A stretch of 64,000 nt of DNA from an uncultured Phycisphaerales bacterium (GTDB taxonomy: Bacteria > Planctomycetota > Phycisphaerae > SM23-33 > FEN-1343): positions 114,199 to 178,198 of the forward strand of contig CAWAWB010000007.1 in assembly GCA_963785635.1 (NCBI GenBank), in the 5' to 3' direction. Both the position numbers and the translations under genes were made by a program. The notes beneath the pieces were generated by a model, which had not been told where the DNA came from, did not search any database, and was given only the letters and a program-made list of their open reading frames with translations. The stretch's first letter is position 1; each line of letters starts with the position of its first letter. Of this stretch, positions 539 through 63,401 are shown in pieces.

Positions 539-1963
539 TTTGGCGTTCCCCTCCAGTGCGGTGCTGCCGCGCGCGCCGCAATGGGCGATGACGCCGTCGA
601 CGATGCACTCGGCTCCCACGCTGCGCGAGGCTTTGACGAGCACGGTGTCGCCGCCCTTGAGCCACTCATCCACGTGCGCGGCGGCGTCGCGGGCGGCGGG
701 GTATTCCATGATTTTGAGGTGCGTGCCGTTGGTCTCTTTGGCGCCGCGGGCGATGTAGGCGGCCAGGGCCCCCACCGCCACCAGCACGTCGATATTGGAC
801 TGGCCGACCTTGCGGCCAAGTTCCAGGTGAAGCTGGGGCGACTGCTCGCCGAGTTCGCGCATGTCGCCGGCGACGAGCACGCGACGACTGCCTTCCAGGC
901 TGCCCAGGACATCCACCGCCGCGCCCATGGACATGGGGTTGGCGTTGTAGGCATCGTTGATGACGATCACGTCGCCCGCGCGGCGGATCTGAAGGCGCAT
1001 ATCACCCGCGGCCACGTCGGCCAGTGGCGCCCCCGCCTGCTCCAGCGAGAGGCCAAAGCGCATGGCCGCGGCCATAGCCGCCAGGGCGTTCAAGGCATTG
1101 TGTTTGCCGGCCAGGGGCAGCGTGAACCATGCGCGGCCGTTCACCTGGAAACGCTGCTGCGCGCCCATGGACTCCCAGGCGGTCAGCCGCAGCTCGGCCT
1201 TGTCGGACTGGCCAAAGCGGATCAGCCGCACATCGTAGGGTCGCACGGCCTGCTCCAGGGGTTCGCTGTCGGCCCAGATGATGCCGACGCCGCGGCTTTT
1301 TTCCAGCGAGCCGAGGATGGAGGCCTTCTCCACCGCCACGCGCTGGACAGAGCCCAGGCGCTCCAGGTGGCTTGGGCCCACGGCGGTGATGATGGCCAGA
1401 TCGGGCTCGGCGATTTTGGTAAGCGTGGCGATTTCGCCCGGGGCGTTGGAGCCCAGCTCGCAGACGACGTAATCATCGCCCTCCTCCGCCGCCAGCAAAG
1501 TGAGCGGCACGCCGATGTTGTTGTTGAAACTTTTGAGCGCGGCCGAGCCTTTTTTGCTCGCCGACAGGATGTGGTGGATCATGCCTTTGACGGTGGTCTT
1601 GCCGACCGAGCCGGTCACCGCGATCACCTGGCCGGTGAGGTTGCGGCGGTGCATTTTGGCCAGTTCGCCCAGGGCGACGATCGTATCGGGCACGACGATC
1701 AGGCCGCCAAAACCGGTCATATTGGCGGCGGCCGCGGCCTTATCCTTCTGCACGATGGCCGCGGGGCAGCCTGCCGCGGCAACCTGGGCCAAAAAGTCAT
1801 GGCCGTCGAAGTTCCCGCCGGGCAGCGCAACAAAAAGGTCGCCCGCCGCCACCTTGCGCGAATCAATGGCGACCTTCGTGATGCGGATCGGCTCGCGCGG
1901 CGGTGATTTGAGCCAACGGCCGTGCACCTGGCGGCGAATGTCATCCAGCAGCGTCGGTCTCAT
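536..1963 (-). CDS. murF: UDP-N-acetylmuramoyl-tripeptide--D-alanyl-D-alanine ligase MurF
   Basis: ORF 536..2011 carries the Mur ligase P-loop GSVGKTT. The likely start is MRPTLLDD at 1963, preceded by GGAGGTGA and overlapping the murE stop as ATGA. Confidence 0.85.
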   Translation of the reverse strand: MRPTLLDDIRRQVHGRWLKSPPREPIRITKVAIDSRKVAAGDLFVALPGGNFDGHDFLAQVAAAGCPAAIVQKDKAAAAANMTGFGGLIVVPDTIVALGELAKMHRRNLTGQVIAVTGSVGKTTVKGMIHHILSASKKGSAALKSFNNNIGVPLTLLAAEEGDDYVVCELGSNAPGEIATLTKIAEPDLAIITAVGPSHLERLGSVQRVAVEKASILGSLEKSRGVGIIWADSEPLEQAVRPYDVRLIRFGQSDKAELRLTAWESMGAQQRFQVNGRAWFTLPLAGKHNALNALAAMAAAMRFGLSLEQAGAPLADVAAGDMRLQIRRAGDVIVINDAYNANPMSMGAAVDVLGSLEGSRRVLVAGDMRELGEQSPQLHLELGRKVGQSNIDVLVAVGALAAYIARGAKETNGTHLKIMEYPAARDAAAHVDEWLKGGDTVLVKASRSVGAECIVDGVIAHCGARGSTALEGNAK

Positions 1964-3467
1964 CGGCTCACCTCCGCCGGCGCGGGCCGGTGAGATAGTC
2001 GCGCCAAACATTCCGCGGCCACTTCCGTGTCGTCAAAATGGTGCTTCTGCGTGCCGATGATCTGGTAATTCTCGTGGCCCTTGCCGGCCAGGACGACCAC
2101 ATCGCCCGTGGCCGCCTGACTGATCGCCAGCTCGATGGCCGCGCGGCGGTCCGGCTCGACCTTCAAGGTGGCCTTGCCATCCTCTTCAAAGCCGACCAGG
2201 ATGTCGCTCAGGATCTGCTTGGGGTCTTCCGTGCGCGGATTGTCCTGCGTCAAAACCACCACATCGGCCAGTTCCTGCGCCACTTTGGCCATGCGCGGCC
2301 GTTTGGTGCGGTCGCGGTCGCCGCCGCAGCCGAAGAGCACAATCAGCCGGCCTTTGGTGAGCGTGCGCAGGGCCGAAAGCGTGTTGGCCAGCGAATCATC
2401 GGTGTGGGCGTAATCGACGAAGACGTCGAAATCGCTCGGACCCTGCACGCGCTGGCAGCGACCGGGCACGATCACTTCGGTTTGCAGCGCCTCGACGATG
2501 GCTTCCAGCTTGATGCCCAGGGCCAGGCACGATGCCGCGGCGGCCAGGCAGTTGGAAACATTGTGGCGGCCGATGAGGTTCGTGCTGACCTTGCGATTAG
2601 GGCCATCGGCGACGGCAAGCTCGAAGGAAGTGCCGCGCGGGCTGATGCGAATGGCTCGGGCGGTGAGGTCCGCCGCGCTGTCGGCGGCGCCGTCGATTCC
2701 ATACAGGACCACCTCGGCCGCGGTGGATTTTGCCAGTTTTTCCCAGGCGGGATCATCGCGATTTATCACGGCCGCGGCGGAGGCTGCAAGCCCTTCAAAA
2801 AGCAGCGCCTTGGCATCCAGGTAGGCATCCATCGTGCCGTGGTAGTCCAGGTGGTCGCCGGTGAGGTTGGTGAAGGCGGCGATGGCGAAGGGAATCCCCG
2901 CCGCGCGGTGCTGGTGCAGTGCGTGGCTGGAGACCTCCATCACAGCGTGGGTCACGCCGGAGTTCACCATCTGGGCCATCATCTCGGCCAGGAGCACGGG
3001 ACCGGGGGTGGTGTTCTCGGCGGGAATTGTTTTGCCGGCGAACTCATAGCTGATCGTCCCCAGCAGGCCCGTGTTTATGCCACAATGCGACAGGATATGG
3101 CGGACCAGGTACGTGAAGGTGGTTTTGCCCTTGGTGCCAGTCACGCCCACCAGCCTAAGTTTGCGGGCGGGCCAGCCGAAGAAGGCCTGGGCAATGGGGC
3201 CTAGCGCAGCCGCCGCGCACTGGACTTTGGCGCAGGCGACTTCTTTGGGCACGGCGGAATCATCTTCGCAGACTACTGCGCGTACGCGCCGGCGGCAAGG
3301 GCCTGCGGAATATAGGCGTGACCATCGGCCTGCGGCCCGCGCACGGCGATAAAGCACGTGCCTTTGCCTGCGCGGCGAGAATCCGCCGTGATCATCAGCA
3401 CATCAGGATCGCCCCGCCGCGCGAGCACGCCGATGCCCGCGGCCGCAAGCAAACTGCTGAATTGCAT
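1960..3467 (-). CDS. murE: UDP-N-acetylmuramoyl-L-alanyl-D-glutamate--2,6-diaminopimelate ligase MurE, with an apparent frameshift near 3275-3290
   Basis: The 465-aa ORF carries VGVTGTKGKTT. The true N-terminus (ADSRRAGKGTCFIAVRGPQADGH...) sits in a different frame (ORF 3273..3467), so one indel is needed to join them. Confidence 0.8.
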
Positions 3468-3599: not shown

Positions 3600-3722
3600 A
3601 CTTGAGCCACAGAGGTCACAGAGGCAAACGGAGAGGTCACAGAGAAGAAAAGACTTATATTCAAATTAAGCAATCAGCGTGTTTTTGTTTCTCCGGCCTT
3701 AACTCTGTGTCCTCTGTGGCGA
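3600..3722. repeat. Hairpin repeat element, CACAGAG variant of the CACAAAG family, between ftsI and murE
   Basis: Left arm is gccacagaggtcacagagg...ggtcacagag with the heptamer every 10 bp. The loop carries gaagaaaag...ttccggcc. The right arm is the inverted ctctgtgtcctctgtggc. It is homologous by eye to the elements at 31285, 37622, 56775/58181 and 60240. Confidence 0.6.
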
Positions 3723-3732
3723 ATTCTTCGGT

Positions 3733-5511
3733 TTAAAAGGCGCTGGTATTGTCCGCAGGCTTGCCCTTCTGCCCGCCCTTGGCGGGAATTTCCTCATCGT
3801 GTGGGACATCGAGGTAAGCCAAGCCCTGCTCGAGAATGGCTTTGACCACCGGGGCCGCGACCGTGCCGCCGTAAATGGCGCCGGCCTTGGGCCGCCGCAC
3901 ACTGATCAGGCAGACCAGGCGCGGCTTTTCGAGCGGCGCGCCGGCGACGTAGCTGGAAGTGTAGCCCGAGCCATAGGGCGGGATTTGAGCTGTGCCGGTC
4001 TTGCCGAAACTGCTCCAACCGGCCAGACGGCCGGCCTTACCCGTGCCTTCTGTGGGCACCTTGGCCAGGACCCGCAGGCGAAAATCGTGGATAAGCTCCG
4101 ACGCGATCACCTGCTTGACTTCAAAAGCGCCGGCTCGATCCTGCTCCACCTGGCCATCCGCGCCGTAGACGGCCCGCACTAGCTTTGGCCGCAGCAGCAG
4201 GCCATCATTGGCGATAGAGGAAAAGGCGGTGATCATCTGGAGGCCCGTCACGCCCACTTCCTGCCCCATGGGGATGGACCACTTGGAGTCCATAGTCCAT
4301 TTGGGTAGCTTGTTAACCAGGCCGGCATCCTCACCTTTAAGCTCGATGCCAGTGGGCTTGCCAAAACCGTAGGTGGTGATGATGCGATACAGGCGTTCAT
4401 TGCCCAGAATCTCGCCGATATGCGCCATGCCGATGTTAGAACTGTGGATGACGATATCCTCTACCGTGAGATTGCCGTAGCCGCCGTGCACATCGTGCAG
4501 GGTGCGGCCGCGGCGGCAATCCCAGGCGCCGTTGTTGCAGAAGAAGATCTGGCCGTAGTGCACCTTGCCCATGGCCAGGGCCGCTGAAGCGGTGAAGGGC
4601 TTGAAGATGGAGCCGGGCTCGAAGGGGTCGGTGATGGCGCGGTTGCGGCGCTGGTCATCTTCCGCCTTGTTGTATTCATTCAGATCGAAGGTGGGCTCGC
4701 AGGCCAGGGCCAGGATCTCGCCGTTGCGGGGATCCATGACGATGCCGATGGCCGATTCGGCCTTGTTCTTGGCGACGGCCTGGGCGAGCTGCTCTTCCAG
4801 GAAGCGCTGCACGACCACGTCGATGGTGAGCTGAATGGCGTGCCCGTCCCGCGGCGGCTGATAGGCGTTGGGTTCATCCCAGATGGCCCGGCGGCTGGCA
4901 TCGCCCCACAGGACGTTGTAGCCGTTTTCCGCCCGCAGGTACTTGTCGGCATAGAGCTCGATGCCTTCCATGCCGGTTTCCTGCTCGTTGGCGTCGCGCC
5001 CGGCAAAGCCGATCACGTGCGCGGCCAGCGAACCATTGGGATATTCCCGCCGCCACTGAGGCTTTATGCCCACGGCGTGGTTGCGCAGGGCACGGACCGC
5101 CTGGACGGTTTTCTCATCCACATCATCGGCCAGGACGACGAAGCGCCGCTCGTTCTCGCGGCCCTCCTCAAGTTCGTCCTGAATGCGCTCGGCGGACTGG
5201 CCCAGCACCTTGGCCACCGATTTGGCCACCTGCTCGACCTGCTCGGGCGCGATCATCATAGGGTCGATGAAGATTCGCGAGGCCTGGCGGCTGCCGGCCA
5301 GGAGCACCGGCATGGAATAGCTGCGGCCGTAGATGTCGCCGCGGCGGCCGGGAATATCGATCATGATCCGCTGCTGACCCTGCGCCTTGGAGATCATGGC
5401 GGCGTGGCTTTGCGTCTGGAACAGCAGGAGCTTGGCGCCTGCGGCGATCAGCGCTACCAAGAGCAGGCTGAAAATGATGTGGCAGGCATACGGTCGACCG
5501 GTCGCAGACAC
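3733..5511 (-). CDS. ftsI: Peptidoglycan D,D-transpeptidase FtsI (class B PBP)
   Basis: 592 aa with an N-terminal TM helix. Transpeptidase motifs SIFKP, SSN and KTGTA are present. It follows ftsL. Confidence 0.85.
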   Translation of the reverse strand: MSATGRPYACHIIFSLLLVALIAAGAKLLLFQTQSHAAMISKAQGQQRIMIDIPGRRGDIYGRSYSMPVLLAGSRQASRIFIDPMMIAPEQVEQVAKSVAKVLGQSAERIQDELEEGRENERRFVVLADDVDEKTVQAVRALRNHAVGIKPQWRREYPNGSLAAHVIGFAGRDANEQETGMEGIELYADKYLRAENGYNVLWGDASRRAIWDEPNAYQPPRDGHAIQLTIDVVVQRFLEEQLAQAVAKNKAESAIGIVMDPRNGEILALACEPTFDLNEYNKAEDDQRRNRAITDPFEPGSIFKPFTASAALAMGKVHYGQIFFCNNGAWDCRRGRTLHDVHGGYGNLTVEDIVIHSSNIGMAHIGEILGNERLYRIITTYGFGKPTGIELKGEDAGLVNKLPKWTMDSKWSIPMGQEVGVTGLQMITAFSSIANDGLLLRPKLVRAVYGADGQVEQDRAGAFEVKQVIASELIHDFRLRVLAKVPTEGTGKAGRLAGWSSFGKTGTAQIPPYGSGYTSSYVAGAPLEKPRLVCLISVRRPKAGAIYGGTVAAPVVKAILEQGLAYLDVPHDEEIPAKGGQKGKPADNTSAF

Positions 5512-5624: not shown

Positions 5625-5891
5625 TCAATCTTTCAAGGCCGGCTCATGACTGACAGGCGATGAAGAAGGGGCTTCCATGGGAATTCCCATCTCCTGCTTG
5701 CGATTGAGCAAAGCCTGGGGCGACGTCAGATCGCCCAGCCGCACATCCAGCCCGTAAGCGAGCTGCCGCTGACGGTGCAACTCTGCATTCCATTCCTGCG
5801 CCTCATGCCGCATAACCACTTCCTGGCGGCGCAGTTCCACCATGCCCACCGCTATCGCCGTCAACATTACAATTACCATTGCGATACGCAT
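5625..5891 (-). CDS. ftsL: Cell division protein FtsL-like (small bitopic coiled-coil protein)
   Basis: ORF 5625..5954. The likely start is MRIAMVIVMLTAIAVG (TM helix) followed by a coiled-coil segment. It sits immediately upstream of ftsI. Confidence 0.5.
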   Translation of the reverse strand: MRIAMVIVMLTAIAVGMVELRRQEVVMRHEAQEWNAELHRQRQLAYGLDVRLGDLTSPQALLNRKQEMGIPMEAPSSSPVSHEPALKD

Positions 5892-5964
5892 TGCACGCTT
5901 TTTAACATGGCACGGCCGAGACCCGCACAATTCAGGGCAAGATCCCCATGCCACGCCGTTTAGC

Positions 5965-7058
5965 CTAATTCGGAATCGTCAACACCATGCCGATATCCAA
6001 CCGGTCGCTGCCACCCAGTGTGCCGCGGTTTGCCTCCAGCAGCTTCTTGACCGCGTCGTTGCTGCCATCCTTCATCTGGATTCTGGCGATAGATGTCAAG
6101 TTGTCGCCCTGGCGGACGGTGTAGGTTTTGCCGGTTTTGGATGCCGCGGTCTTGGCCGCGGGAGCTAACGGAGCGGACTTGGCCACCAAGGGAGAAGGCG
6201 TGGAGGAAGATGGATCCAGCTTCACCAGGCCCAGCGTTTTGGGGGCAACCGCCACGGGCGTCAGATTGCTGGTAGCGGGCGCCGGCGCACCTGCCGGCGC
6301 GGGGACTGCCGGTACGGGACTCGGCGCGCCCGCCTTGGGCGGGACAACGGTGAGGTCCTTGAGATAATCGTGCAGACCGCGGCCATCCAGCACGCGCGTG
6401 GCCTCCGGCGGCAGCGGCGGGATCACCAGTTCCTGGCCGACCTGCAAGTTCTCGGCGCTGGAGAGCGTGGAGCGGTTGGCCTCCAGGATCAGCTTGTAAT
6501 ATTGCTCGTTGCCGCGGCCGTACACCTTGGTGGCGATGTTATAGAGAGTGTCTTTCGGCGCCACCTTGTACGTGCGCTTGGGTGCGGCGGGCCCGATGGC
6601 GGCGGCAGGCGCCGGTGCGGGAGGCGCGGCGGGCGCGGCCGCTGTCGGCTGCACAGGCTGCACTTTGACCGGCTGGATGGGCACGGTCGTTGTCGGCGGG
6701 ATTGCCACAGCCACCTGGGCGCGGGGCTGGCCGGCTGCGCCGCGAGGACCACCACCGGCACGGGCGTTACGGCCGGCCCGACGGCGATAGGCTCTTCCGC
6801 GTGCGGGACAACCACCACGGGCTTTGGCTCCCCTGTGCTGTAGGTCGTGGGATTGGCGCGCACGGTGGTGATGCCGTCACTGGCCGGGCTGGGCAGCGCG
6901 GGCGCCGCAGGCTGCGTGCGATGCGCCATCAGGCCATCCACGGGCGTGGGCGAGCCGCGCGGCGGGACGGTGCCCGGCCGGGCATTGCCCAAAATCACGC
7001 CGAAACAAATGATAAAAACCAGACCAACAAGCAGCGCGACCTTCGTTTCCCGCGTCAT
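5965..7058 (-). CDS. Membrane-anchored, proline-rich protein with two LysM domains (apparent frameshift near 6700)
   Basis: The N-terminal part (ORF 6489..7058) has a TM helix, VALLVGLVFIICFGVIL, then a Pro-rich linker. The C-terminal part (ORF 5965..6714) has two LysM motifs, TYKVAPKDTLYNIA and YTVRQGDNLTSIA. Confidence 0.6.
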
Positions 7059-18542: not shown

Positions 18543-19586
18543 TCAGGTGGATTGCCTGACAATCAGTTGCGGCTGGACCAGGATGCAGCGCTGGGGGTCC
18601 GCGAGCGGCTCATGCTTTTCCAGCCGCGCGATTTGTTCCATCATCAGTTCCGCGCAGCGCGTGTGCCGGTGGTCGATGGTGGTCAGTTCCGGATCCAGCA
18701 GATCTGAGTATTCGCGGTTGTCAAAGCCTACCACGGCCACGTCCTGCGGCACTTTGAGGCCCAGGCGCTTGAGTTCCTTCATGCCCACGGCCGCCCAGCG
18801 GTCAGCGGTAAAAACCAGCGCATCGCATTTTTTCGCCACAAGTTCGGCGATTATCCCGCCGGCGACTTCCATCACGGCTGGGCGTCCTGAAGTGGTCGGA
18901 AAAACGGCGATGCGGTCGAGGCCATCCTCCAGGCCATGCTGGCGGATCGCCTGGCAATAGCCATCATGCTTGTCGTCTTCCAGCATGGAATGCCCGCCCA
19001 TCCGGGCCATCTCCACCAGACCTATGCGGCGCCGCCCGCGCTCTATCAGATGATCAACCGCCATCTTTGCGGCGGCAAAACGGTCCATTTGCACGTAGCA
19101 GATGGCACTGGAAGGAAACCTCACACAGGAAACCAGGCACGGGATTTCCGCCAGCAGTTCCCCCACCGAATTATCGGTGTCGAGATAAGCGATAGTATCG
19201 ATGCCGCGAGCGGCAAATTCATCCAGCGAGGTCTGGAGGTCTTCAATCCGGAGGTGCAGTTGACTGACCAAGACCCGGTAACCCGCCTGGCGGGCCACGG
19301 CCTCGAACGCCAGCAGCCGTTCGGCGCGCTTGGCGCTCATAGCCGACTGGGTAAGCAGGGCCCCGATCAAATGCGTGCTCTTGCCGGAGAGCCGCTGGGC
19401 CACCTGGTTAGGCTGGTAGTTCAGCTTTTTTGCAGCCTGGCGAATCTTGCTGGCGGTCTCCGGGCTCACGCCGATATTGCCGCCGCTGCCTAAGAGCACG
19501 TGTCCCACAGCGCCGCGCGACACGCCCACCGCCCGGGCGATATCCACAAGGCGGATGCGCTTTCGACTTATATCACCGTTGGACAT
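18543..19586 (-). CDS. LacI-family transcriptional regulator
   Basis: N-terminal HTH (IRLVDIARAVGVSRGAVGHVL...VSPETASKIRQAAKKLNYQPNQVAQ) followed by a periplasmic-binding-like sugar-binding domain. Confidence 0.8.
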   Translation of the reverse strand: MSNGDISRKRIRLVDIARAVGVSRGAVGHVLLGSGGNIGVSPETASKIRQAAKKLNYQPNQVAQRLSGKSTHLIGALLTQSAMSAKRAERLLAFEAVARQAGYRVLVSQLHLRIEDLQTSLDEFAARGIDTIAYLDTDNSVGELLAEIPCLVSCVRFPSSAICYVQMDRFAAAKMAVDHLIERGRRRIGLVEMARMGGHSMLEDDKHDGYCQAIRQHGLEDGLDRIAVFPTTSGRPAVMEVAGGIIAELVAKKCDALVFTADRWAAVGMKELKRLGLKVPQDVAVVGFDNREYSDLLDPELTTIDHRHTRCAELMMEQIARLEKHEPLADPQRCILVQPQLIVRQST

Positions 19587-31284: not shown

Positions 31285-31470
31285 GCAACACAAAAGAGCA
31301 CAAAGGTCACAAAGAGCACCAAGAACGGCCGGAAAAGGCTTTTAAAAAACTCTTCTGAAGTTCTTTTTGGTGAGCTTGGTGACCTTGGTGCTCTTGGTGA
31401 TTTAATGGTTCTTCTTACGTGTTTGGCTTGGTCCTGGTGGTCTTTGTGTTCCTCTTCACTTTTCATTGAC
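31285..31470. repeat. Hairpin repeat element of the CACAAAG family
   Basis: Left arm is cacaaaagagcacaaaggtcacaaagagcaccaag. The loop has aacggccggaaaagg. The right arm is the inverted ggtgaccttggtgctcttggtga...ggtctttgtgttcctc. Confidence 0.6.
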
Positions 31471-35724: not shown

Positions 35725-37596
35725 GTGAGAAGGTTTCGCCAATTACCAATCGTGTGCGCGCCCATCTGCCTGCTGATAATCGCGCTTGCCGGCTCCTCTG
35801 CGTTTGGAACTTTCTGGTACGTGTCCCCCTCCGGCGTGTCCGGCAACGCGGGCACTCAGTCATCGCCCTGGGACATGGCCAGCGCGTTTAACGGCGGGCA
35901 TAGCGGCCAGGTCCATCCCGGCGACACCATCTATATGATGGATGGAAATTACTGGACCCGCGCTCCAACCTCAACGGCTGCCAGGATGTAGTACTGAATG
36001 GCACTGCCGCCGCGCCCATTACCATTCGTCCGGCGCCAGGCGCGCACGCGCACATCGACGGCGGCCTGAATACCGGCATCCTCGACGCCCAGAACAACAA
36101 GCCTTGCAACTTCACGTATATTCGCGACCTGGAGGTCTGGATGACCGAGTGGCTGGTGCCCATCGTCTCCAAGGACACAGGCTCCTGGCCCAGCGACGTT
36201 CCCCAGGCCGGCGGCGTCAATGCCGAGAACGGCACGGGCTGCAAATTCATCAACCTGCTGATCCACAACACCGCCGAGGGCATCACCGACTGGATGCCGG
36301 ATTCCAATTCCGAGAGCTACGGTTGCATTATCTATAACTGCGGCTGGAAGGCCCCGGACCGCAGCCACGGGCACTGCGTGTACACGCAAAACAGCTACGG
36401 CCTCAAGACCTTCGCCGACTGCATCTTCTCCACGCAATATGAATTAGTTCTGGACGGCCAGCAGACCATGCAGGCCTACGGCTCCTCGGCCGCCGATGCC
36501 AATGACTATCTCATGGACCACAACATCGGCTATGACGGCGGCCAGTTTCTCATCGGCGGCATGAATCCCGCCGGCGGCAACCACGTCATCGGAAACATGC
36601 TGTACACCTGCCCGCTGTCGATCGGTTATTTCTTCTCCTCCTACAACCTGGACTTTGAAGTCAGGGATAACGTGGTGGTAAACAGTTTCCTGGATATCTT
36701 CGCCGTCCAGAACCTGACGGCCAGCAACAACAAGGTCATCGGCGGAGCCACCAGGACCTATGGTCCAAACGATCCAAGCCATAACTACACCACCACACCG
36801 GGGCAATCGCCGCCTGCCCAACCATTGGTATTTGTCAGGCCCAACAAGTACGACTCCACGCGGGCCAACCTGGTGGTATACCAGTGGAATCAAGCCAGCA
36901 CGGTCGTGGTGGATTTCACGGCGCCGTGCCGGCCGGCGGCAGTTTCAAGCTGATGAACCCGAAGAATTTTTACGGCGCCCCCGTTTATCAAGGCACGACC
37001 GATGCCAATCGCTGCGCATCCGTGCCCACGCCGGCCGTCTTCAATGTTTATGCAGTCACCGTTTCGGCAAACGCGGCCCCCGTTGTCACCATGCCTGCCA
37101 ATATCACCACCAGTATGCCCGGCCATCGGGGCCTGGGGCCGTAGCCCTGGGCGCGGCCGTGAGCGATGACGGCCAGCCTAATCCGCCGGGCGCTCTGGCG
37201 GCGAGCTGGAGCGTCCTGTCTGCTCCGACCAATGGCACGGTCAACTTCACCAATGCGAACGCGGCCTCCACGACCGCCAGCTTCACGCGAGTCGGCATGT
37301 ACACTCTCCAGCTTGACGCGAATGACGGCAGCCTGCACACAGCCGCCACGATGACCGTGACGGTGCAGGTGGATCCGCGGGCGGACTTTGACAACAACGG
37401 TGTGGTCGACGGCCTGGACTTCCTCGCCTGGCAGCGCAACTATAATCACGGCACTGCCCTCAGCGGCGCCCCGATGCTCGACGCCAACTTCGCCGATGCC
37501 AACTATGCCCACGCGAATGGCGACGCCAATGGCGACGGCAAGGTGGATGGCCAGGACTTTCTGCTCTGGCAGCAGGGATACGTTTACGGGCATTGA
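35725..37596 (+). CDS. Secreted parallel beta-helix (pectate-lyase fold) protein with a C-terminal dockerin-like domain (about four apparent frameshifts)
   Basis: Signal peptide, then TFWYVSPSGVSGN...GDTIYMMDGNY, a DUF1565/beta-helix start. ORFs 36141..36953 and 36760..37596 continue it. The C-terminus has DFDNNGVVDGLDFLAWQ...NGDGKVDGQDFLLWQ dockerin repeats. Confidence 0.5.
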
Positions 37597-37621: not shown

Positions 37622-37782
37622 AAAAAAATAACCACAAAGGTCACAAAGAAGCACAAAGGGCATAAAGGAAGAAAAGAGTAAAGGCAAGAGAGGGAAAAAA
37701 TTAAGAAATGTTTCCGGCCGTTCTTTGTATTCTTCGTGGTCTTTGTGATCTTTGTGGTTAATTCTCGATAAAAAAAAGGCCG
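37622..37782. repeat. Hairpin repeat element of the CACAAAG family (intact reference copy)
   Basis: Left arm is aaccacaaaggtcacaaagaagcacaaagggcataaagg. The loop has gaagaaaag...ttccggccgttc. The right arm is tttgtattcttcgtggtctttgtgatctttgtggtt. Confidence 0.65.
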
Positions 37783-37827
37783 GGGCGGCATTTGCCGTCC
37801 CGGCCTTTCGTTTTTGCCGGTACTGAA

Positions 37828-38716
37828 TTACTTGCCCATCTTTGCCGGCTGCGTGGCGGGCTTCATCGCCGGTTGACTGGCCGGCTGGCTGGCTGAGCCC
37901 ATTTCGCCTTCCTTCACGATCCCTAAAAGCTCAACTTCGAAGATCAGCGTGGAATTCGGCGGTATGCCGGGGCGGGCGGTCGCGCCATAGGCCAGGTCGC
38001 CCGGAATATACAGCTTATATTCTGAGCCCACCGGCATGAGCTGCAAACCTTCGCCAAAGCCCTTGATCACGCCGTTGACCGGGAATTCCGCCGGTTTGCC
38101 GCGCTTGTAGGAGCTGTCGAATTCCGTGCCGTTGATCAGCTTGCCGCGGTAGTTGATCCGCACCTTATCCGTGGGGCCGGGCTTGGGCCCGTCGCCCTGG
38201 CGGGTCACCTCATACTGCAAGCCGTCGGGCAGCGCCTTGACGCCCTCGCGCTTGGCGTTGTCGGCCAGGAATTTTTGCCTTCCTCTTCATTCTTTTCGGC
38301 CTGCTGTGCCTGCTCGGCGCGCTCCTCGTCCATGCGCGTCTTCGCCTTGGCCATGGCGTAATCATTCAGGGTCCTGCTGGGCCTTCTGCATCTCCTCCTG
38401 GCTCATCCGGGGCATTTTGCCGAACAGGCCGTCTTGCATGCCTTTGACCATCTGGTCGAAATCAAAATCCAGTCCTTCCGCCTTGGCGGCGCTGGAAATC
38501 TGCTTGCCGGCTTCATAGCCCGTGCTGTAGCTGATGTCTTCCTTGTTCCAGGCGGGCATGGACTGTGTGGCCGCGGGGCCGTGCAATTTGCAGGACCGGC
38601 TTGGGGGCGGAACTGTTCGGGATGGCGGGCTTAGAGGTTGCGGTGTGCGGTTGCGCCAGCAATGCCGCCGTCAATGCTCCACAGATGACCAGAACAATCG
38701 CCATTCTTGCTTTCAT
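37828..38716 (-). CDS. fkpA: FKBP-type peptidyl-prolyl cis-trans isomerase, FkpA-like (apparent frameshifts)
   Basis: The C-terminal FKBP domain is in ORF 37828..38220. The N-terminal dimerisation region is in ORF 38362..38586. The signal peptide [22 protein letters not shown] is in ORF 38513..38782. Confidence 0.65.
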
Positions 38717-39915: not shown

Positions 39916-40283
39916 GGCGAAAAACGTTAATCAGTTAATCCGTTAATCGGAAACGGCCGGAACAAGGTCCTTCCCACTTGGGAAATCGTACCGAGGTTTC
40001 GGGGGAGTTGGTAGGGTGTGCAGCTTCGCTGCACACGTTTTTCTTGGCCCTCCTCCGTGGTATGGGTGGCGGTGCCATCTGATATTCTGCCATTGACAGA
40101 GGCTTGAGGCTTGAGGTTCATCAAAGGGTCAAAGCCTCTCTTTGCGCTTGCAGACTTTATTAATTGGAATAAAGTGAGACATGGGTGCCGGGGCTGCAAC
40201 CCCTCTCCTTTGGGAGAGGGTGGCCCCGCGAAGCTTCAGCGATGCGGGGCCAGGTGAGAGTGCAGCCACGCTTGGAGGCCAAT

Positions 40284-44651: not shown

Positions 44652-44787
44652 TTGGTTCATCGGGACGAGAAGTCAATTAGTCATTTAGTCAACTGGTCAA
44701 TTAGCCGGAAAGACGCCCGCTTAGTCCGGCTAACACAAATTGACTAAGCAGCGAGCGGTAGGCGTAGTCGAACCGCGAGAGGACCAA

Positions 44788-55603: not shown

Positions 55604-55725
55604 CTTGCGCTGCTTGCCCATTCTTATTCTCCAGTGGCGAATTTACGCCGAATAACAACTGTGCATTATTGTGCGAGAATGTATGAGTCTACATTTTTTG
55701 GCGGACAGTTCAAGGGAAGTTAACA

Positions 55726-55790
55726 GGTTACAGGGTACAGAGCTCCGGCCGTACCTCTTCCTGTTCTGTACCCTGTAACCTTCAACCTGC
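55726..55790. promoter_or_regulatory. Perfect 16-bp inverted repeat (ggttacagggtacaga N33 tctgtaccctgtaacc) in the GH4/pyrD divergent region
   Basis: Read directly from the sequence. It lies ~40 bp upstream of the pyrD start. It could be an operator or a leader hairpin. Confidence 0.4.
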
Positions 55791-55830
55791 AATTGAATTT
55801 ACGGGCCGCAAATGCTAGTGTGCCCCTTCA

Positions 55831-56766: not shown

Positions 56767-56833
56767 GAAAAAGAAAGATAACCACAAAGATCACAAAGAC
56801 CACGAAGGACACAAAGAAGACAAAGGCATTAAA

Positions 56834-58180
56834 GGCCAGGTGACAGCAACCGTGTTACACCTGAGCCGTGATTTTATGGCATTTGCTGAGACGCTTTCAA
56901 CGATCCTTGAACTTATGTTTTGGAACCTGATAACCAATTGTTTTGATCAACGGCTGCCAAGCCGGTTCGCGGCGGCGCAGCTTGAAAAAGCGAACCTGGC
57001 CGTGTGTCAGATCGACCTCCACGCGCACGAGCCGATGGGGCCAATCCACGTCCACGCGCCACGAGTGCCCCAGGCATTCCACGTGGCCGCGCGCATCGCT
57101 GCGCCGCAAAAAGATTACCGTTCCAGCCAGCGGCGCATTAAAGTTGGGCACGAAGGAGGCGGGCATCGGCCGACGAGCCGGCGCCCCGGCGATGCGCTGG
57201 GACGAACGCTGTCGCATCGAGGCGATCATCGCATCGCTTCGGGTCCGAAGAGCTCGGATGTTGCGATGTTTGAACCTGCGCCAGACCAGGCGTTGCCAGC
57301 GGCCGTTGAAAGCTTCGACCTCCGCCTGAAAGCCCGGCTCTCTGGGCGGGGCAAAGATCGGCGTAACCTGCAATTGCAGGCACAGGCGGATCACTCGCCC
57401 GAAGCTGTCGGGCCACTGATGAGCGCCTTGGAAGATGGTGTCGTTGTCGAACTTGGCGTAGTGCGGCCGGCCATGCTCGCGCCAATGCTCCAACAGCGAT
57501 TCGACCACGATTTTCGCGGTGATTTTGTTTTTTGGCCAACTGGCCGGCAGCCCGCCCAGCAGGCTCATCCCGTTGAGCAAGGTAACGTCCTGGCCCCCGC
57601 GAATAACCAGATCGGTGATGGCGTCGAAGCTGTCGATCTCGGCTCGCCCGGCGGCGACCTCGGGCAGATACCAGCCCTTGGGCGGCGGCCGTCGACGCGT
57701 GCGTCGACGCCCATCCAGTACGCCGTTGCGGGACAGGATTCTCCCAATGGTTCTGCAAGAAGGCAGGGCCTGCAGCCCCTGGGCCAGCAACTCGGCATGG
57801 ATGGCTTTGGCGCCATGCTCCCCATGGGCACTGCGCAACTTCAACTGCCGACGGGTGGCCAGAATCCTGCGTTCCAGGGTTCTGGAGGTGCGATTGCGCG
57901 GCCGGCGACAGCCGGAGCGAAGATTGCCCAAATCCGTGCGACCCAAACGCGTGCCCTCGGCACGTTTGCACCAGCGCTGCACCGTCATGTGACTGACGCC
58001 AAAACGCCTGGCCACCCGCCGTGTGGAGCTGCCGCGACGGACAGCCAAAATCATCTGGTAACGGCGTTCGGAAAGAGACGTTTTTCATCACACATGGTCC
58101 TCGGGGAAACTTTTTTCCCGCATGATAGCTGTAACATAGTTGCTGTCACTCAGGTGTAACACGATTGCTGTCACCTGGCC
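56834..58180 (-). mobile_element. IS481-family-like insertion sequence (~1347 bp), apparently intact, with 32-bp terminal inverted repeats and a 7-bp target-site duplication
   Basis: IRL is GGCCAGGTGACAGCAACCGTGTTACACCTGAG. IRR (reverse complement) is GGCCAGGTGACAGCAATCGTGTTACACCTGAG. CATTAAA is directly repeated at 56827-56833 and 58181-58187. There is a single transposase ORF. Confidence 0.8.
56897..58054 (-). CDS. IS481-family-type DDE transposase (N-terminal HTH + rve integrase core)
   Basis: HTH RRFGVSHMTVQRWCKR. DDE candidates are IDSFD, AKFDNDTIFQG (cf. DNGxEF) and AEVEAFNGRWQ (cf. VERFNRTL). Confidence 0.75.
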   Translation of the reverse strand: MILAVRRGSSTRRVARRFGVSHMTVQRWCKRAEGTRLGRTDLGNLRSGCRRPRNRTSRTLERRILATRRQLKLRSAHGEHGAKAIHAELLAQGLQALPSCRTIGRILSRNGVLDGRRRTRRRPPPKGWYLPEVAAGRAEIDSFDAITDLVIRGGQDVTLLNGMSLLGGLPASWPKNKITAKIVVESLLEHWREHGRPHYAKFDNDTIFQGAHQWPDSFGRVIRLCLQLQVTPIFAPPREPGFQAEVEAFNGRWQRLVWRRFKHRNIRALRTRSDAMIASMRQRSSQRIAGAPARRPMPASFVPNFNAPLAGTVIFLRRSDARGHVECLGHSWRVDVDWPHRLVRVEVDLTHGQVRFFKLRRREPAWQPLIKTIGYQVPKHKFKDR

Positions 58181-58289
58181 CATTAAAACTTAATCCGGAA
58201 GAGAATTCTCCGGCCGTTCTTCGTGCTCTTTGTGATCTTGGTGATCTTTGTGGTTGCCTTTTCTTAAGCGTCCAGGCTGGAGGTGCAAC

Positions 58290-60239: not shown

Positions 60240-60372
60240 TTTCACCTTAATTACAAATTACAAGTGACAAAGTACAAATTACGGGAGACCCGCACATCAA
60301 CGCCCGAACCGAATCCCATCACCCCGTCCCTCTTATAATTTGTAACTTGTACTTTGTAATTTGTAATTTCTC
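60240..60372. repeat. Hairpin repeat element, TACAAAT/GACAAAG variant of the heptamer-phased family
   Basis: Left arm is aattacaaattacaagtgacaaagtacaaattacggg. Right arm is the inverted ttataatttgtaacttgtactttgtaatttgtaatttc. Confidence 0.55.
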
Positions 60373-63183: not shown

Positions 63184-63401
63184 GTTGCCAGACTAGAACT
63201 CAGAGGTGGCAAAGTCAATCGGGCCGCAAAGCGGCCTGGCTTTTTGGCGTTTTGACTATTTGGCTGTTTGGTAAGGGCTCGAAAAATTGTGTGGCTGATT
63301 GACTAAGCCAAAATGGCGGCTGAACTGGTTCACTGTTAAACTGTTTCGCGGGTTCCCGTCGTACCTAACAGTCAAACAGCAAAAGGCCAAATAGCCAAAT
63401 A

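Follow-up and report, generated by a model that had tools for sequence, protein, structure and literature searches.

Phased-heptamer hairpins in a Phycisphaerales genome as probable gene-less forms of a GxxExxY cassette

A stretch of 64,000 nucleotides (nt) from an uncultured Phycisphaerales bacterium (contig CAWAWB010000007.1; hereafter the window) contains a set of intergenic elements in which tandem CACAAAG-type heptamers, a loop and an inverted heptamer array follow one another, as in the element near position 37622 (e37622). What these elements are, and what they derive from, is the question raised by this locus. The original prediction viewed them as a family of hairpins whose arms may bind a protein. 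The five sites that it reported exist as described, with 3-4 CACAAAG, CACAGAG or CACCAAG heptamers, a loop and an inverted right arm, and the loop motifs gaagaaaag and ttccggcc are real. As argued below, the window copies are very probably gene-less forms of a compact cassette that carries a GxxExxY gene, comparable to MITEs (miniature inverted-repeat transposable elements) or to repetitive extragenic palindromic (REP) doublets forming hairpins (REPINs). Taken over all observations, derivation from this cassette is probably the best explanation.

Heptamer arrays and the GxxExxY cassette

The single heptamer CACARAG is approximately twofold enriched in the window (28 occurrences versus 12.8 expected). 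The phased pair CACNRAGNNCACNRAG (CACNRAG-NN-CACNRAG) occurs 15 times versus 0.02 expected, a count reached in none of 100 shuffles, and all 15 pairs fall within four CACNRAG elements. Tandem Repeats Finder returned a period of 9 in every arm, and the unit spacing is 9 bp in 423 of 471 cases among the at least 120 related loci listed. The 10-bp spacing that had been proposed occurs once in the window. Because the period is 9 bp, the heptamers do not lie on one face of the helix, and this part of the original description fails.

An exact scan for CTTNGTG-NN-CTTNGTG-NN-CTTNGTG in 596 Gb, comprising one genome per species, recovered inverted arrays in at least 120 species genomes from many phyla; approximately 17 matches are expected by chance for the 18 specified bases, assuming uniform base composition. 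The proposal of a dispersed repeat family is borne out. The record titles among the matches listed include Acidobacteriota, Chloroflexota (with complete genomes of Herpetosiphon, H. aurantiacus DSM 785 being one carrier), Planctomycetota, Verrucomicrobiota, several proteobacterial classes, Desulfobacterota, Nitrospirae, Bacteroidota, cyanobacteria and one Methanothrix metagenome-assembled genome (MAG), and the titles of MAG records, the archaeal one included, may stem from binning errors. A few matches are coding repeats (L017, L033 and L099). Among the listed loci, the order of the arrays is CAC..AAG followed by CTT..GTG in 84 cases and the reverse in 9, loops measure 6-376 bp (median 44), and solo arrays comprise about a third (85 of 253). 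The profile of 78 elements reads TTMAC-CACNAAG-RR-CACNAAG-RR-CACNAAG. The elements occupy all gene arrangements, often 5-40 nt from both neighbouring open reading frames (ORFs), and are rarest between divergent genes, a qualitative statement since the orientation statistics derive from crude, noisy ORF-based gene calls. A coding origin of the 9-nt period (NNC-ACN-AAG, encoding X-Thr-Lys with the free base at the wobble position) was rejected generally, given that the elements are symmetrical and have no start codons, although array units sometimes continue into real ORF ends (an MDTKDYK start in L073 and the dcd stop described below).

The arrays form the two ends of a compact cassette, ~0.43-0.7 kb long, with a GxxExxY gene inside (TIGR04256/PF13366, PD-(D/E)XK nuclease fold). 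Its layout is TTNACC-(CRCNRAG + 1-2 nt)x2-4, a GxxExxY ORF of ~120-145 amino acids, and (CTYNGYG + 1-2 nt)x2-4-GGTNAA. Within ~1 Mb of loci selected for arrays, 5 of 5 GxxExxY genes or gene fragments are flanked by arrays. An independent sample comprised 80 metagenomic loci chosen solely because they encode a GxxExxY relative, with 73 testable genes. A gene was counted automatically as bracketed if inverted heptamer arrays lay no more than 130 bp from its ORF ends, and 101 random 370-bp windows of the same loci served as the control. By this measure 59 of the 73 genes are bracketed, versus 2 of the 101 control windows; by eye, nearly all of the 80 loci are. The upstream array often runs up to the start codon (CACGAAG directly followed by ATG) and the downstream array begins no more than a few bases from the stop codon.

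The nearest available relative of the window genome, locus L121 (murE identity of 71%), contains a full-length cassette of 687 bp (L121:14136-14822) between mraY and ftsW in the division and cell wall (dcw) operon. It comprises TTTACCACAGAGGACACAGAG..., a frameshifted ORF and ...CTCTGTGTCCTCTGTGGTTAATTT, with CACAGAG arms. Both this ORF and the array-bracketed ORF of L073, a Chloroflexia MAG, are GxxExxY by profile (TIGR04256, 136 bits; PF13366, 132-135 bits).

The heptamers vary from cassette to cassette (CACGAAG, CACAGAG, CACGGAG, CGCAGAG, CGCAAAG, CACCAAG, CATGAAG and others) and can be generalised as CRCNRAG in an 8-9 bp register. Positions C1, R2, C3, R5, A6 and G7 are conserved across phyla, leaving the fourth base and the spacers free to vary. 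In 34 of 44 cassettes, the two arms have an identical consensus heptamer (~7 expected). Of 139 spacer positions compared in oriented cassettes, 66 are Watson-Crick, 13 G-U, 23 A-C and 37 other, with no compensation and no sense-strand G-U bias of the kind that would mark selection on RNA. Likewise, the 2-nt spacers of the 78 profiled elements match from arm to arm no better than they match shuffled partners (0.46/0.34, 0.40/0.31, 0.31/0.32 and 0.36/0.32).

AlphaFold2 models the GxxExxY protein as a minimal PD-(D/E)XK core (predicted local distance difference test score of 94). The closest folds in the PDB, with template modelling scores of ~0.5, are generic cores of this class, those of Cas4 SSO0001 and of lambda-exonuclease-like proteins, and a search of PDB sequences with the GxxExxY profile gave no match. 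PADLOC yielded no significant defence-system match (of two GxxExxY proteins, one had a marginal Cas4-like hit, E = 0.0012), and PHROG yielded no match for the GxxExxY cargo. In the literature, PF13366 carries the label 'function unknown' and is credited with multiple inter-domain transfers (PMC3424549). Annotations of proteins at least 79% identical to the query place them in an archaeon, Desantisbacteria, Bipolaricaulota and Pirellulaceae.

Three groups of cassettes are worth describing individually. In L213-L222, an identical GxxExxY cassette (protein P0204) lies inside a conserved ~700-bp block with imperfect inverted ends, TTAGTAACGGT... and ...ACGTTCCTAA. The block occurs in at least six left/right flank combinations on short sediment contigs and has the look of a further, larger mobile unit or of a cassette array carrying the element. 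Identical P0162 proteins found in many samples represent one organism, and do not constitute a case of recent mobility. In L128, L131 and L133, the cassette occupies an orthologous site between the end of a histidine-kinase gene (upstream) and the start of a response-regulator gene (downstream). The three proteins are 79-82% identical, and most units of both arms read CACGAAG in some and CACGGAG in others. In L131 the outer two units and the intervening spacer, read from the flanks, are identical between the left and right arms, suggesting that one arm has converted the other in patches.

A second family of small genes is found in the same architecture. All four genes of the PF05635 family ('23S rRNA IVS protein', where IVS denotes intervening sequence; a bAvd-like four-helix bundle) that were examined (Table 1) are bracketed by inverted tandem 7-9-mers, and two of them lie inside core operons, between atpD and atpC and between fdx and iscX. 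The repeat units are GGGGCTA, YCCGTGN/CACGGNN in reversed topology, and TTAATAA. The reversed topology is that of L346 and L347, with YCCGTGN upstream and CACGGNN downstream, the downstream array lying within the 3' end of the ORF. Searches for GxxExxY and for four-helix-bundle proteins each returned at least 8000 candidates.

Origin of the gene-less copies

Deletion of the gene from a cassette can be followed in a Desantisbacteria population that is polymorphic among strains. In L203, L205 and L208 (region 5790-6001), an additional 172-bp unit stands beside an intact cassette, and it is missing from L204, L206, L207 and L209-L212. Between a left arm and a short right arm, the unit retains only 33 nt from the start of the ORF and ~50 nt from its end. 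Judging from this composition, it is a hairpin-only copy soon after ORF deletion; since both ORF ends are kept, deletion from the gene-bearing form does occur.

At the same locus, the dcd gene as called extends into the left arm and terminates at the TAA within a CACTAAG heptamer, so that the array supplies the C-terminus of a host protein (..TTKNTKNT*).

Comparison of the window copies with the L121 cassette points to the same origin. The arms of e3600 score 56 against the L121 cassette arms versus 15.5 +/- 2.4 for shuffles, and the arms of e37622 and e56775 are likewise significantly similar. The outer ends also fit the cassette pattern TTNACC... / ...GGTNAA: AATAACCAC...GTGGTTAATT in e37622, GATAACCAC...GTGGTTGCC in e56775 and TGAGCCAC...GTGGCGAATT in e3600. 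A CACAGAG element is lacking from the orthologous ftsI-murE spacer of L121, while the L121 cassette sits at mraY-ftsW, and thus the positions of the elements turn over. L121 also contains further repeat types, namely GACTTGA pairs in its ftsI-murE spacer (about 9716 and 9952) and GCTGGAG pairs at 18600-19020 that bracket 378 bp of internal repeats.

The opposite order of events would make the hairpin the primary element, a dispersed palindromic repeat in whose loop small selfish genes (GxxExxY, four-helix-bundle) and even ordinary insertion sequences (ISs) preferentially land, the gene-bearing forms being derived. Hairpin-only copies do outnumber gene-bearing ones in the array-selected sample (84 versus 5), the loop of e56775 has taken up an unrelated IS, two unrelated cargo families share one architecture and the loops are extremely variable. 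The 172-bp copy, however, documents the deletion that this order does without. Moreover, in many unrelated lineages the ORF start abuts the last heptamer of one arm and the stop abuts the first heptamer of the other, which is not expected from independent insertions, and the heptamer type accompanies the cargo family (CRCNRAG with GxxExxY). Overall, we consider a hairpin-first origin rather unlikely and retain derivation of the window copies from the GxxExxY cassette.

The window copies and related features are compiled in Table 1. On inspection of the five reported sites, the copies were placed at 3606-3720, 31294-31400, 37626-37763, 56778-56833 with 58188-58256, and 60249-60369. The sites include a diverged member at 55692-55814 and a solo arm at 39926-39962 that had previously escaped notice; an inverted partner of the latter was looked for and was not found, and CGGCCGGAA beside it is a subterminal motif that is also found in the CACAAAG elements. 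The motif TCCGGCCG occurs at 7 sites in the window, 5 of them inside such elements, these two included. The version at 60249-60369 has the same architecture and plausibly belongs to the CACNRAG family. The loops of the window copies measure only 40-90 bp, which makes these copies the non-autonomous form.

Table 1 Coordinates of the heptamer elements and associated features. Window coordinates unless a locus label is given.
Feature	Coordinates	Strand	Description
Gene-less element e37622	37626-37765	+	Inverted heptamer arms, purine-rich loop; left arm 37631-37668: AACCACAAAG GT CACAAAG AAG CACAAAG GG CATAAAG; TTCCGGCCGTT 37711-37722; right arm 37721-37763, terminating in GTGGTTAATT
Gene-less element e3600	3600-3726	+	CACAGAG heptamers; left arm 3606-3644; CTCCGGCC 3691-3698; right arm 3701-3722
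Gene-less element e31285	31290-31402	-	Opposite orientation; CACAAAG/CACCAAG array 31294-31325, then CGGCCGGAA 31326-31334; partner array of CTTGGTG units 31364-31400; additional degenerate right-type units 31425-31452
Element e56775, left half	56778-56833	+	AACCACAAAG AT CACAAAG AC CACGAAG GA CACAAAG AA GACAAAG and loop start; ends at CATTAAA 56827-56833
IS in the e56775 loop	56834-58180	-	1347 bp; 7-bp direct repeat CATTAAA; not part of the element
Element e56775, right half	58181-58256	+	Second CATTAAA, small CCGGA/TCCGG hairpin, TCCGGCCGTT 58209-58218, right arm 58218-58256 ending GTGGTT
Diverged member	55692-55814	+	Arms GGTTACAGGGTACAGA and TCTGTACCCTGTAACC (TACAGRG units); loop motif CTCCGGCCGT 55743-55752
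Diverged 7-bp-period version	60249-60369		AATTACA/TACAAAG units; inverted arms 54 nt apart
Solo arm	39926-39962	-	Three GTTAATC units (period 8) abutting CGGCCGGAA
PF05635 locus	L344:9870-10420		
PF05635 locus	L346:9930-10430		
PF05635 locus	L347:9930-10425		
PF05635 locus	L202:1300-1800		

As originally proposed, the fourth copy is split by an IS, and CATTAAA is the duplication at its borders. The IS has terminal inverted repeats of roughly 30 bp (GGCCAGGTGACAGCAA... and ...TTGCTGTCACCTGGCC). Its minus-strand ORF (56897-58054) matches in Pfam an N-terminal transposase-type helix-turn-helix only, without a recognised catalytic domain, and a plus-strand ORF of 439 amino acids has no Pfam match. 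The right half of e56775 lies ~35 nt upstream of the next ORF (58248/58291). The element e3600 occupies the ftsI-murE spacer of the dcw cluster (ftsI 3733-5511 and murE 1960-3357, both on the minus strand, assigned by Pfam and homologues). The neighbours of e37622 are a dockerin/PKD gene (36760-37596, plus strand) and an FKBP gene (37828-38220, minus strand).

Elements of the same architecture with unrelated units are also present in the window, at 44671-44745, 63237-63401, 40099-40116, 39926-39948 and 60249-60369, and the first two of these are additions to the original list. The units are AGTCAATT, TGGCTTTT, GAGGCTT, GTTAATC and AATTACA; an inverted partner is usual, as is a small CCGG-containing hairpin in the loop.

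At least 120 IMG/VR contigs also carry arrays, nearly all without the gene. The contigs L270, L260, L242 and L247, which are classified as viral, have 3-7 separate CAC.AAG arrays per 10-14 kb without a GxxExxY gene, and the peptide patterns applied to the viral collection recovered only one GxxExxY relative. Tandem amplification is also seen. L111:6470-7800 (a Vicinamibacterales MAG) is a macro-satellite of at least eight head-to-tail units of ~155 bp, each consisting of one complete CACGAAG hairpin element and a conserved spacer, and L073:7700-7990 contains three tandem units of ~110 bp with a right arm at the end of each.

Possible reading of the heptamers and folding of the stem

The conservation of the heptamers, combined with free, non-complementary spacers, fits a sequence reader better than selection for a perfect RNA or DNA stem. 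Each heptamer may thus serve as a site recognised by a sequence-specific factor. Most economically, this would be the cassette's own nuclease, bound as a multimer along each arm: the PD-(D/E)XK protein is the only gene product of the cassette and, on that ground, the presumed reader of the arrays that maintains and spreads both types of copy. We put forward this assignment tentatively, at somewhat less than even odds. For the gene-less copies, the factor would be supplied in trans from gene-bearing copies elsewhere in the genome, and the hairpin or cruciform formed by the two arms may take part in the reaction. In transcripts, the long imperfect stem, like that of the 23S rRNA intervening sequences, would let the element sit inside operons.

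The iteron-like array of the original prediction survives in this reduced sense, in that the heptamers behave as recognition units with free spacers. As an operator array through which a host transcription factor or nucleoid protein controls the neighbouring genes, it is very improbable. Direct repeats in a regular register and the contrast between conserved heptamers and free spacers are what such an array would display. Nevertheless, the genes flanking the window copies are functionally unrelated (ftsI/murE, a lactonase, the dockerin protein/FKBP, dihydroorotate dehydrogenase), the same arrays recur across many phyla, they bracket one particular small gene, and the 9-bp register keeps the sites off one helical face. 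Resemblances to DnaA boxes, CRP half-sites, MraZ boxes and sigma-54 sites were dropped because the matches are partial and the spacers variable.

Both strands of the window copies fold into long, imperfect hairpins (z-scores of -4 to -7 versus shuffles), in agreement with the folding anticipated from the sequence. A role of the stem at the RNA level is a serious rival that does not exclude the reading of heptamers by a factor. Like REP or IVS stems, the stem, transcribed within operons, would undergo RNase III cleavage or hold up exonucleases and so set the stability and relative expression of flanking genes, the DNA repeats merely encoding it. Besides the folding of both strands, it is consistent with the tight intergenic fit, often 5-40 nt from start or stop codons and inside operons (dcw here; atp and isc for related cassettes), with the low frequency of copies between divergent genes, and with the 23S rRNA intervening sequence of Coxiella, which has a similar size and layout and is cut by RNase III (PMC4990558). 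It is at odds with the lack of compensatory pairing and of a sense-strand G-U excess in the spacers, with the common solo arms (85 of 253 arrays) and with the presence of copies in both orientations relative to the flanking genes. In addition, a stem alone leaves the six fixed heptamer positions across phyla unexplained. As the account of the elements, such a host role seems to us the less probable one, at perhaps one chance in a few.

The elements are not plain terminators, as had been supposed correctly. The stems are long, imperfect, A/T-richer and without a T tract, whereas an intrinsic terminator has a short GC-rich stem and a U tract. Right after e37622, between the convergent dockerin-protein and FKBP genes, lies a canonical bidirectional intrinsic terminator that is GC-rich (37770-37813; AAAAAAAAGGCCGGGGCGGCA / TGCCGTCCCGGCCTTTCGTTTTT), and e37622 is therefore not required as a terminator there. 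Rfam gave no matches at the gathering threshold in the window and in 12 related loci, and chance-level matches only at E <= 10 around e37622; a scan for transfer and transfer-messenger RNAs found none.

Ordinary MITEs of a DDE-transposase IS, or folded integron recombination sites of the attC type, would share with the elements the terminal inverted repeats, variable interiors, intergenic dispersal and imperfect hairpins with unpaired bases, and the one identical cassette (P0204) in at least six flank combinations could be read in the same way. Against this, a search for target-site duplications in 78 elements (offsets 0-8, lengths 2-9) returned direct-repeat matches at the shuffled expectation, and no transposase or integrase was found inside the long-loop copies. 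The P0204 block exceeds the array-bounded unit and ends in a different repeat (TTAGKAACG), the GTTRRRY core of attC is lacking, and each cassette has two arms rather than one attC. We regard an origin of this kind as highly unlikely. The original prediction had named fragments of a known IS or MITE with target duplications as the finding that would speak against it; taken literally this was not found, there being neither duplication nor transposase, yet the elements appear as MITE-like derivatives of a gene-bearing element.

Several observations weigh against derivation of the window copies from the GxxExxY cassette or against the cassette nuclease as their reader. No GxxExxY coding sequence was found by tblastn anywhere in the window, and a trans-acting copy in this organism has to be assumed. 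Homology beyond the arms is weak: 4 of 300 shuffles reach the score of the purine-rich loop of e37622 against the L121 leader, the 3' match consists of the hexamer GGCCGT alone, and the other window loops have no significant similarity to the L121 cassette outside the arms. Hairpins adjoining cassettes share the heptamer class of the cassette in 1 of 5 cases, in itself an uninformative count. The heptamer class tracks protein similarity weakly (0.588 versus 0.545; 0 of 2000 permutations), and proteins 82% identical at the orthologous site use CACGAAG and CACGGAG, both being reasons for caution about a strict cognate-pair model. The unrelated four-helix-bundle cargo (PF05635), a third such reason, occupies the same type of bracket, so the arms may serve a generic rather than a cargo-specific function. 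Finally, no insertion mechanism is evident, as judged by the absence of target duplications from the 78 elements and of a recombinase.

A self-contained homing system, spread through many bacterial phyla, would combine both kinds of copy. The dispersed hairpins would be 'empty alleles' whose extruded hairpin or cruciform is read and cut by the GxxExxY nuclease, and repair from a gene-bearing copy through arm homology would install the gene in the loop, with four-helix-bundle cassettes, which have other heptamers, behaving likewise. Such a scheme would explain the window repeats as well as those of Xanthomonas and cyanobacteria; we regard it as speculative and rather unlikely. For the host, the window copies themselves are probably neutral passengers.

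Relation to known repeat families

Pairs of inverted tandem heptamers as such are already known, from Xanthomonas, cyanobacteria and Beggiatoaceae. What is new is the source proposed here, gene-less derivatives of a small selfish GxxExxY cassette. No published description of the link between repeat and gene was found in the searchable literature: no paper found there ties GxxExxY or PF13366 to flanking repeats, and the repeat sequences themselves were not found either. The window copies are probably ordinary passengers and the interest lies in the family that they reveal. In environmental bacteria, GxxExxY and four-helix-bundle 'IVS' proteins rank with the most abundant small proteins whose function is unknown, and one framework would cover two puzzles, an orphan protein family and unexplained inverted tandem-heptamer repeats. 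It offers a concrete predicted nuclease substrate (CRCNRAG units in an 8-9 bp register) and describes a compact element able to reside in essential operons (dcw, atp, isc) of many phyla. In practice, the elements break assemblies and can extend or truncate gene calls, as with the dcd stop inside a heptamer.

In Xanthomonas, 70-75 convergent GGGAATC pairs per genome are able to form stem-loops; their function is unknown, and the authors of that study detected no connection with known mobile elements (PMC4692102). Heptamer arrays of cyanobacteria and Beggiatoaceae (TAACTGA in Beggiatoa) have been described without a gene or mechanism (PMC4679880). These repeats share with the present elements the intergenic tandem heptamers. 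They differ in their units, in a period of 7 versus 9 (a heptamer plus a free 2-nt spacer), in arrays that are often much longer and in having no reported gene. Integron attC sites differ further, since no GTTRRRY core is present at the arm ends, there are two arms per ORF and no integrase occurs in the examined gene tables.

Structurally, the closest known systems are MITEs and the 23S intervening sequences. A MITE is likewise an internally deleted, non-autonomous copy that keeps the termini of its parent and reaches high copy number in intergenic positions. The present elements have neither target-site duplication nor transposase, and the parent encodes only a nuclease-fold protein of 120-145 amino acids. 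The 23S IVSs of Coxiella, Leptospira and Salmonella are selfish elements of ~430 nt with a terminal-inverted-repeat stem and a small ORF, tolerated in an essential transcript and distributed sporadically by horizontal transfer; that of Coxiella measures 428 nt, RNase III cuts its 28-bp terminal stem, and its loop contains a 14-kDa ORF (PMC4990558). In addition, the classic IVS protein family PF05635 is itself bracketed by arrays in the four cases examined here. In contrast to IVSs, which occupy helix 9, 25 or 45 of rRNA, the window copies lie between protein-coding genes, with no rRNA in the window, and have no ORF, and the cassette cargo is PF13366 rather than PF05635. Cleavage by RNase III is documented for IVSs, and a stem built of tandem heptamers is not described for the IVS in PMC4990558.

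The closest functional analogue is the system of REPINs and REP-associated tyrosine transposases (RAYTs), for example in Pseudomonas fluorescens (PMC3116915). The comparison with REP sequences and bacterial interspersed mosaic elements made in the original prediction is apt, although the arrays do not belong to that class, as they have neither a GTAG-headed palindrome nor a Y1/HUH RAYT gene, the associated gene being PF13366. A REP is an imperfect palindrome of 20-40 nt with a GTAG head, in place of which tandem direct heptamers are found here. A RAYT is a HUH/Y1 transposase of the IS200/IS605 type, usually single-copy and lineage-specific, whereas GxxExxY is a PD-(D/E)XK protein that is multi-copy and crosses phyla at protein identities of 80% or more. 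The likeness lies in the organisation of the two systems: dispersed intergenic inverted doublets form hairpins, a small nuclease-type gene is flanked by the same inverted repeats, and the gene-less copies are far more numerous than those that carry the gene.

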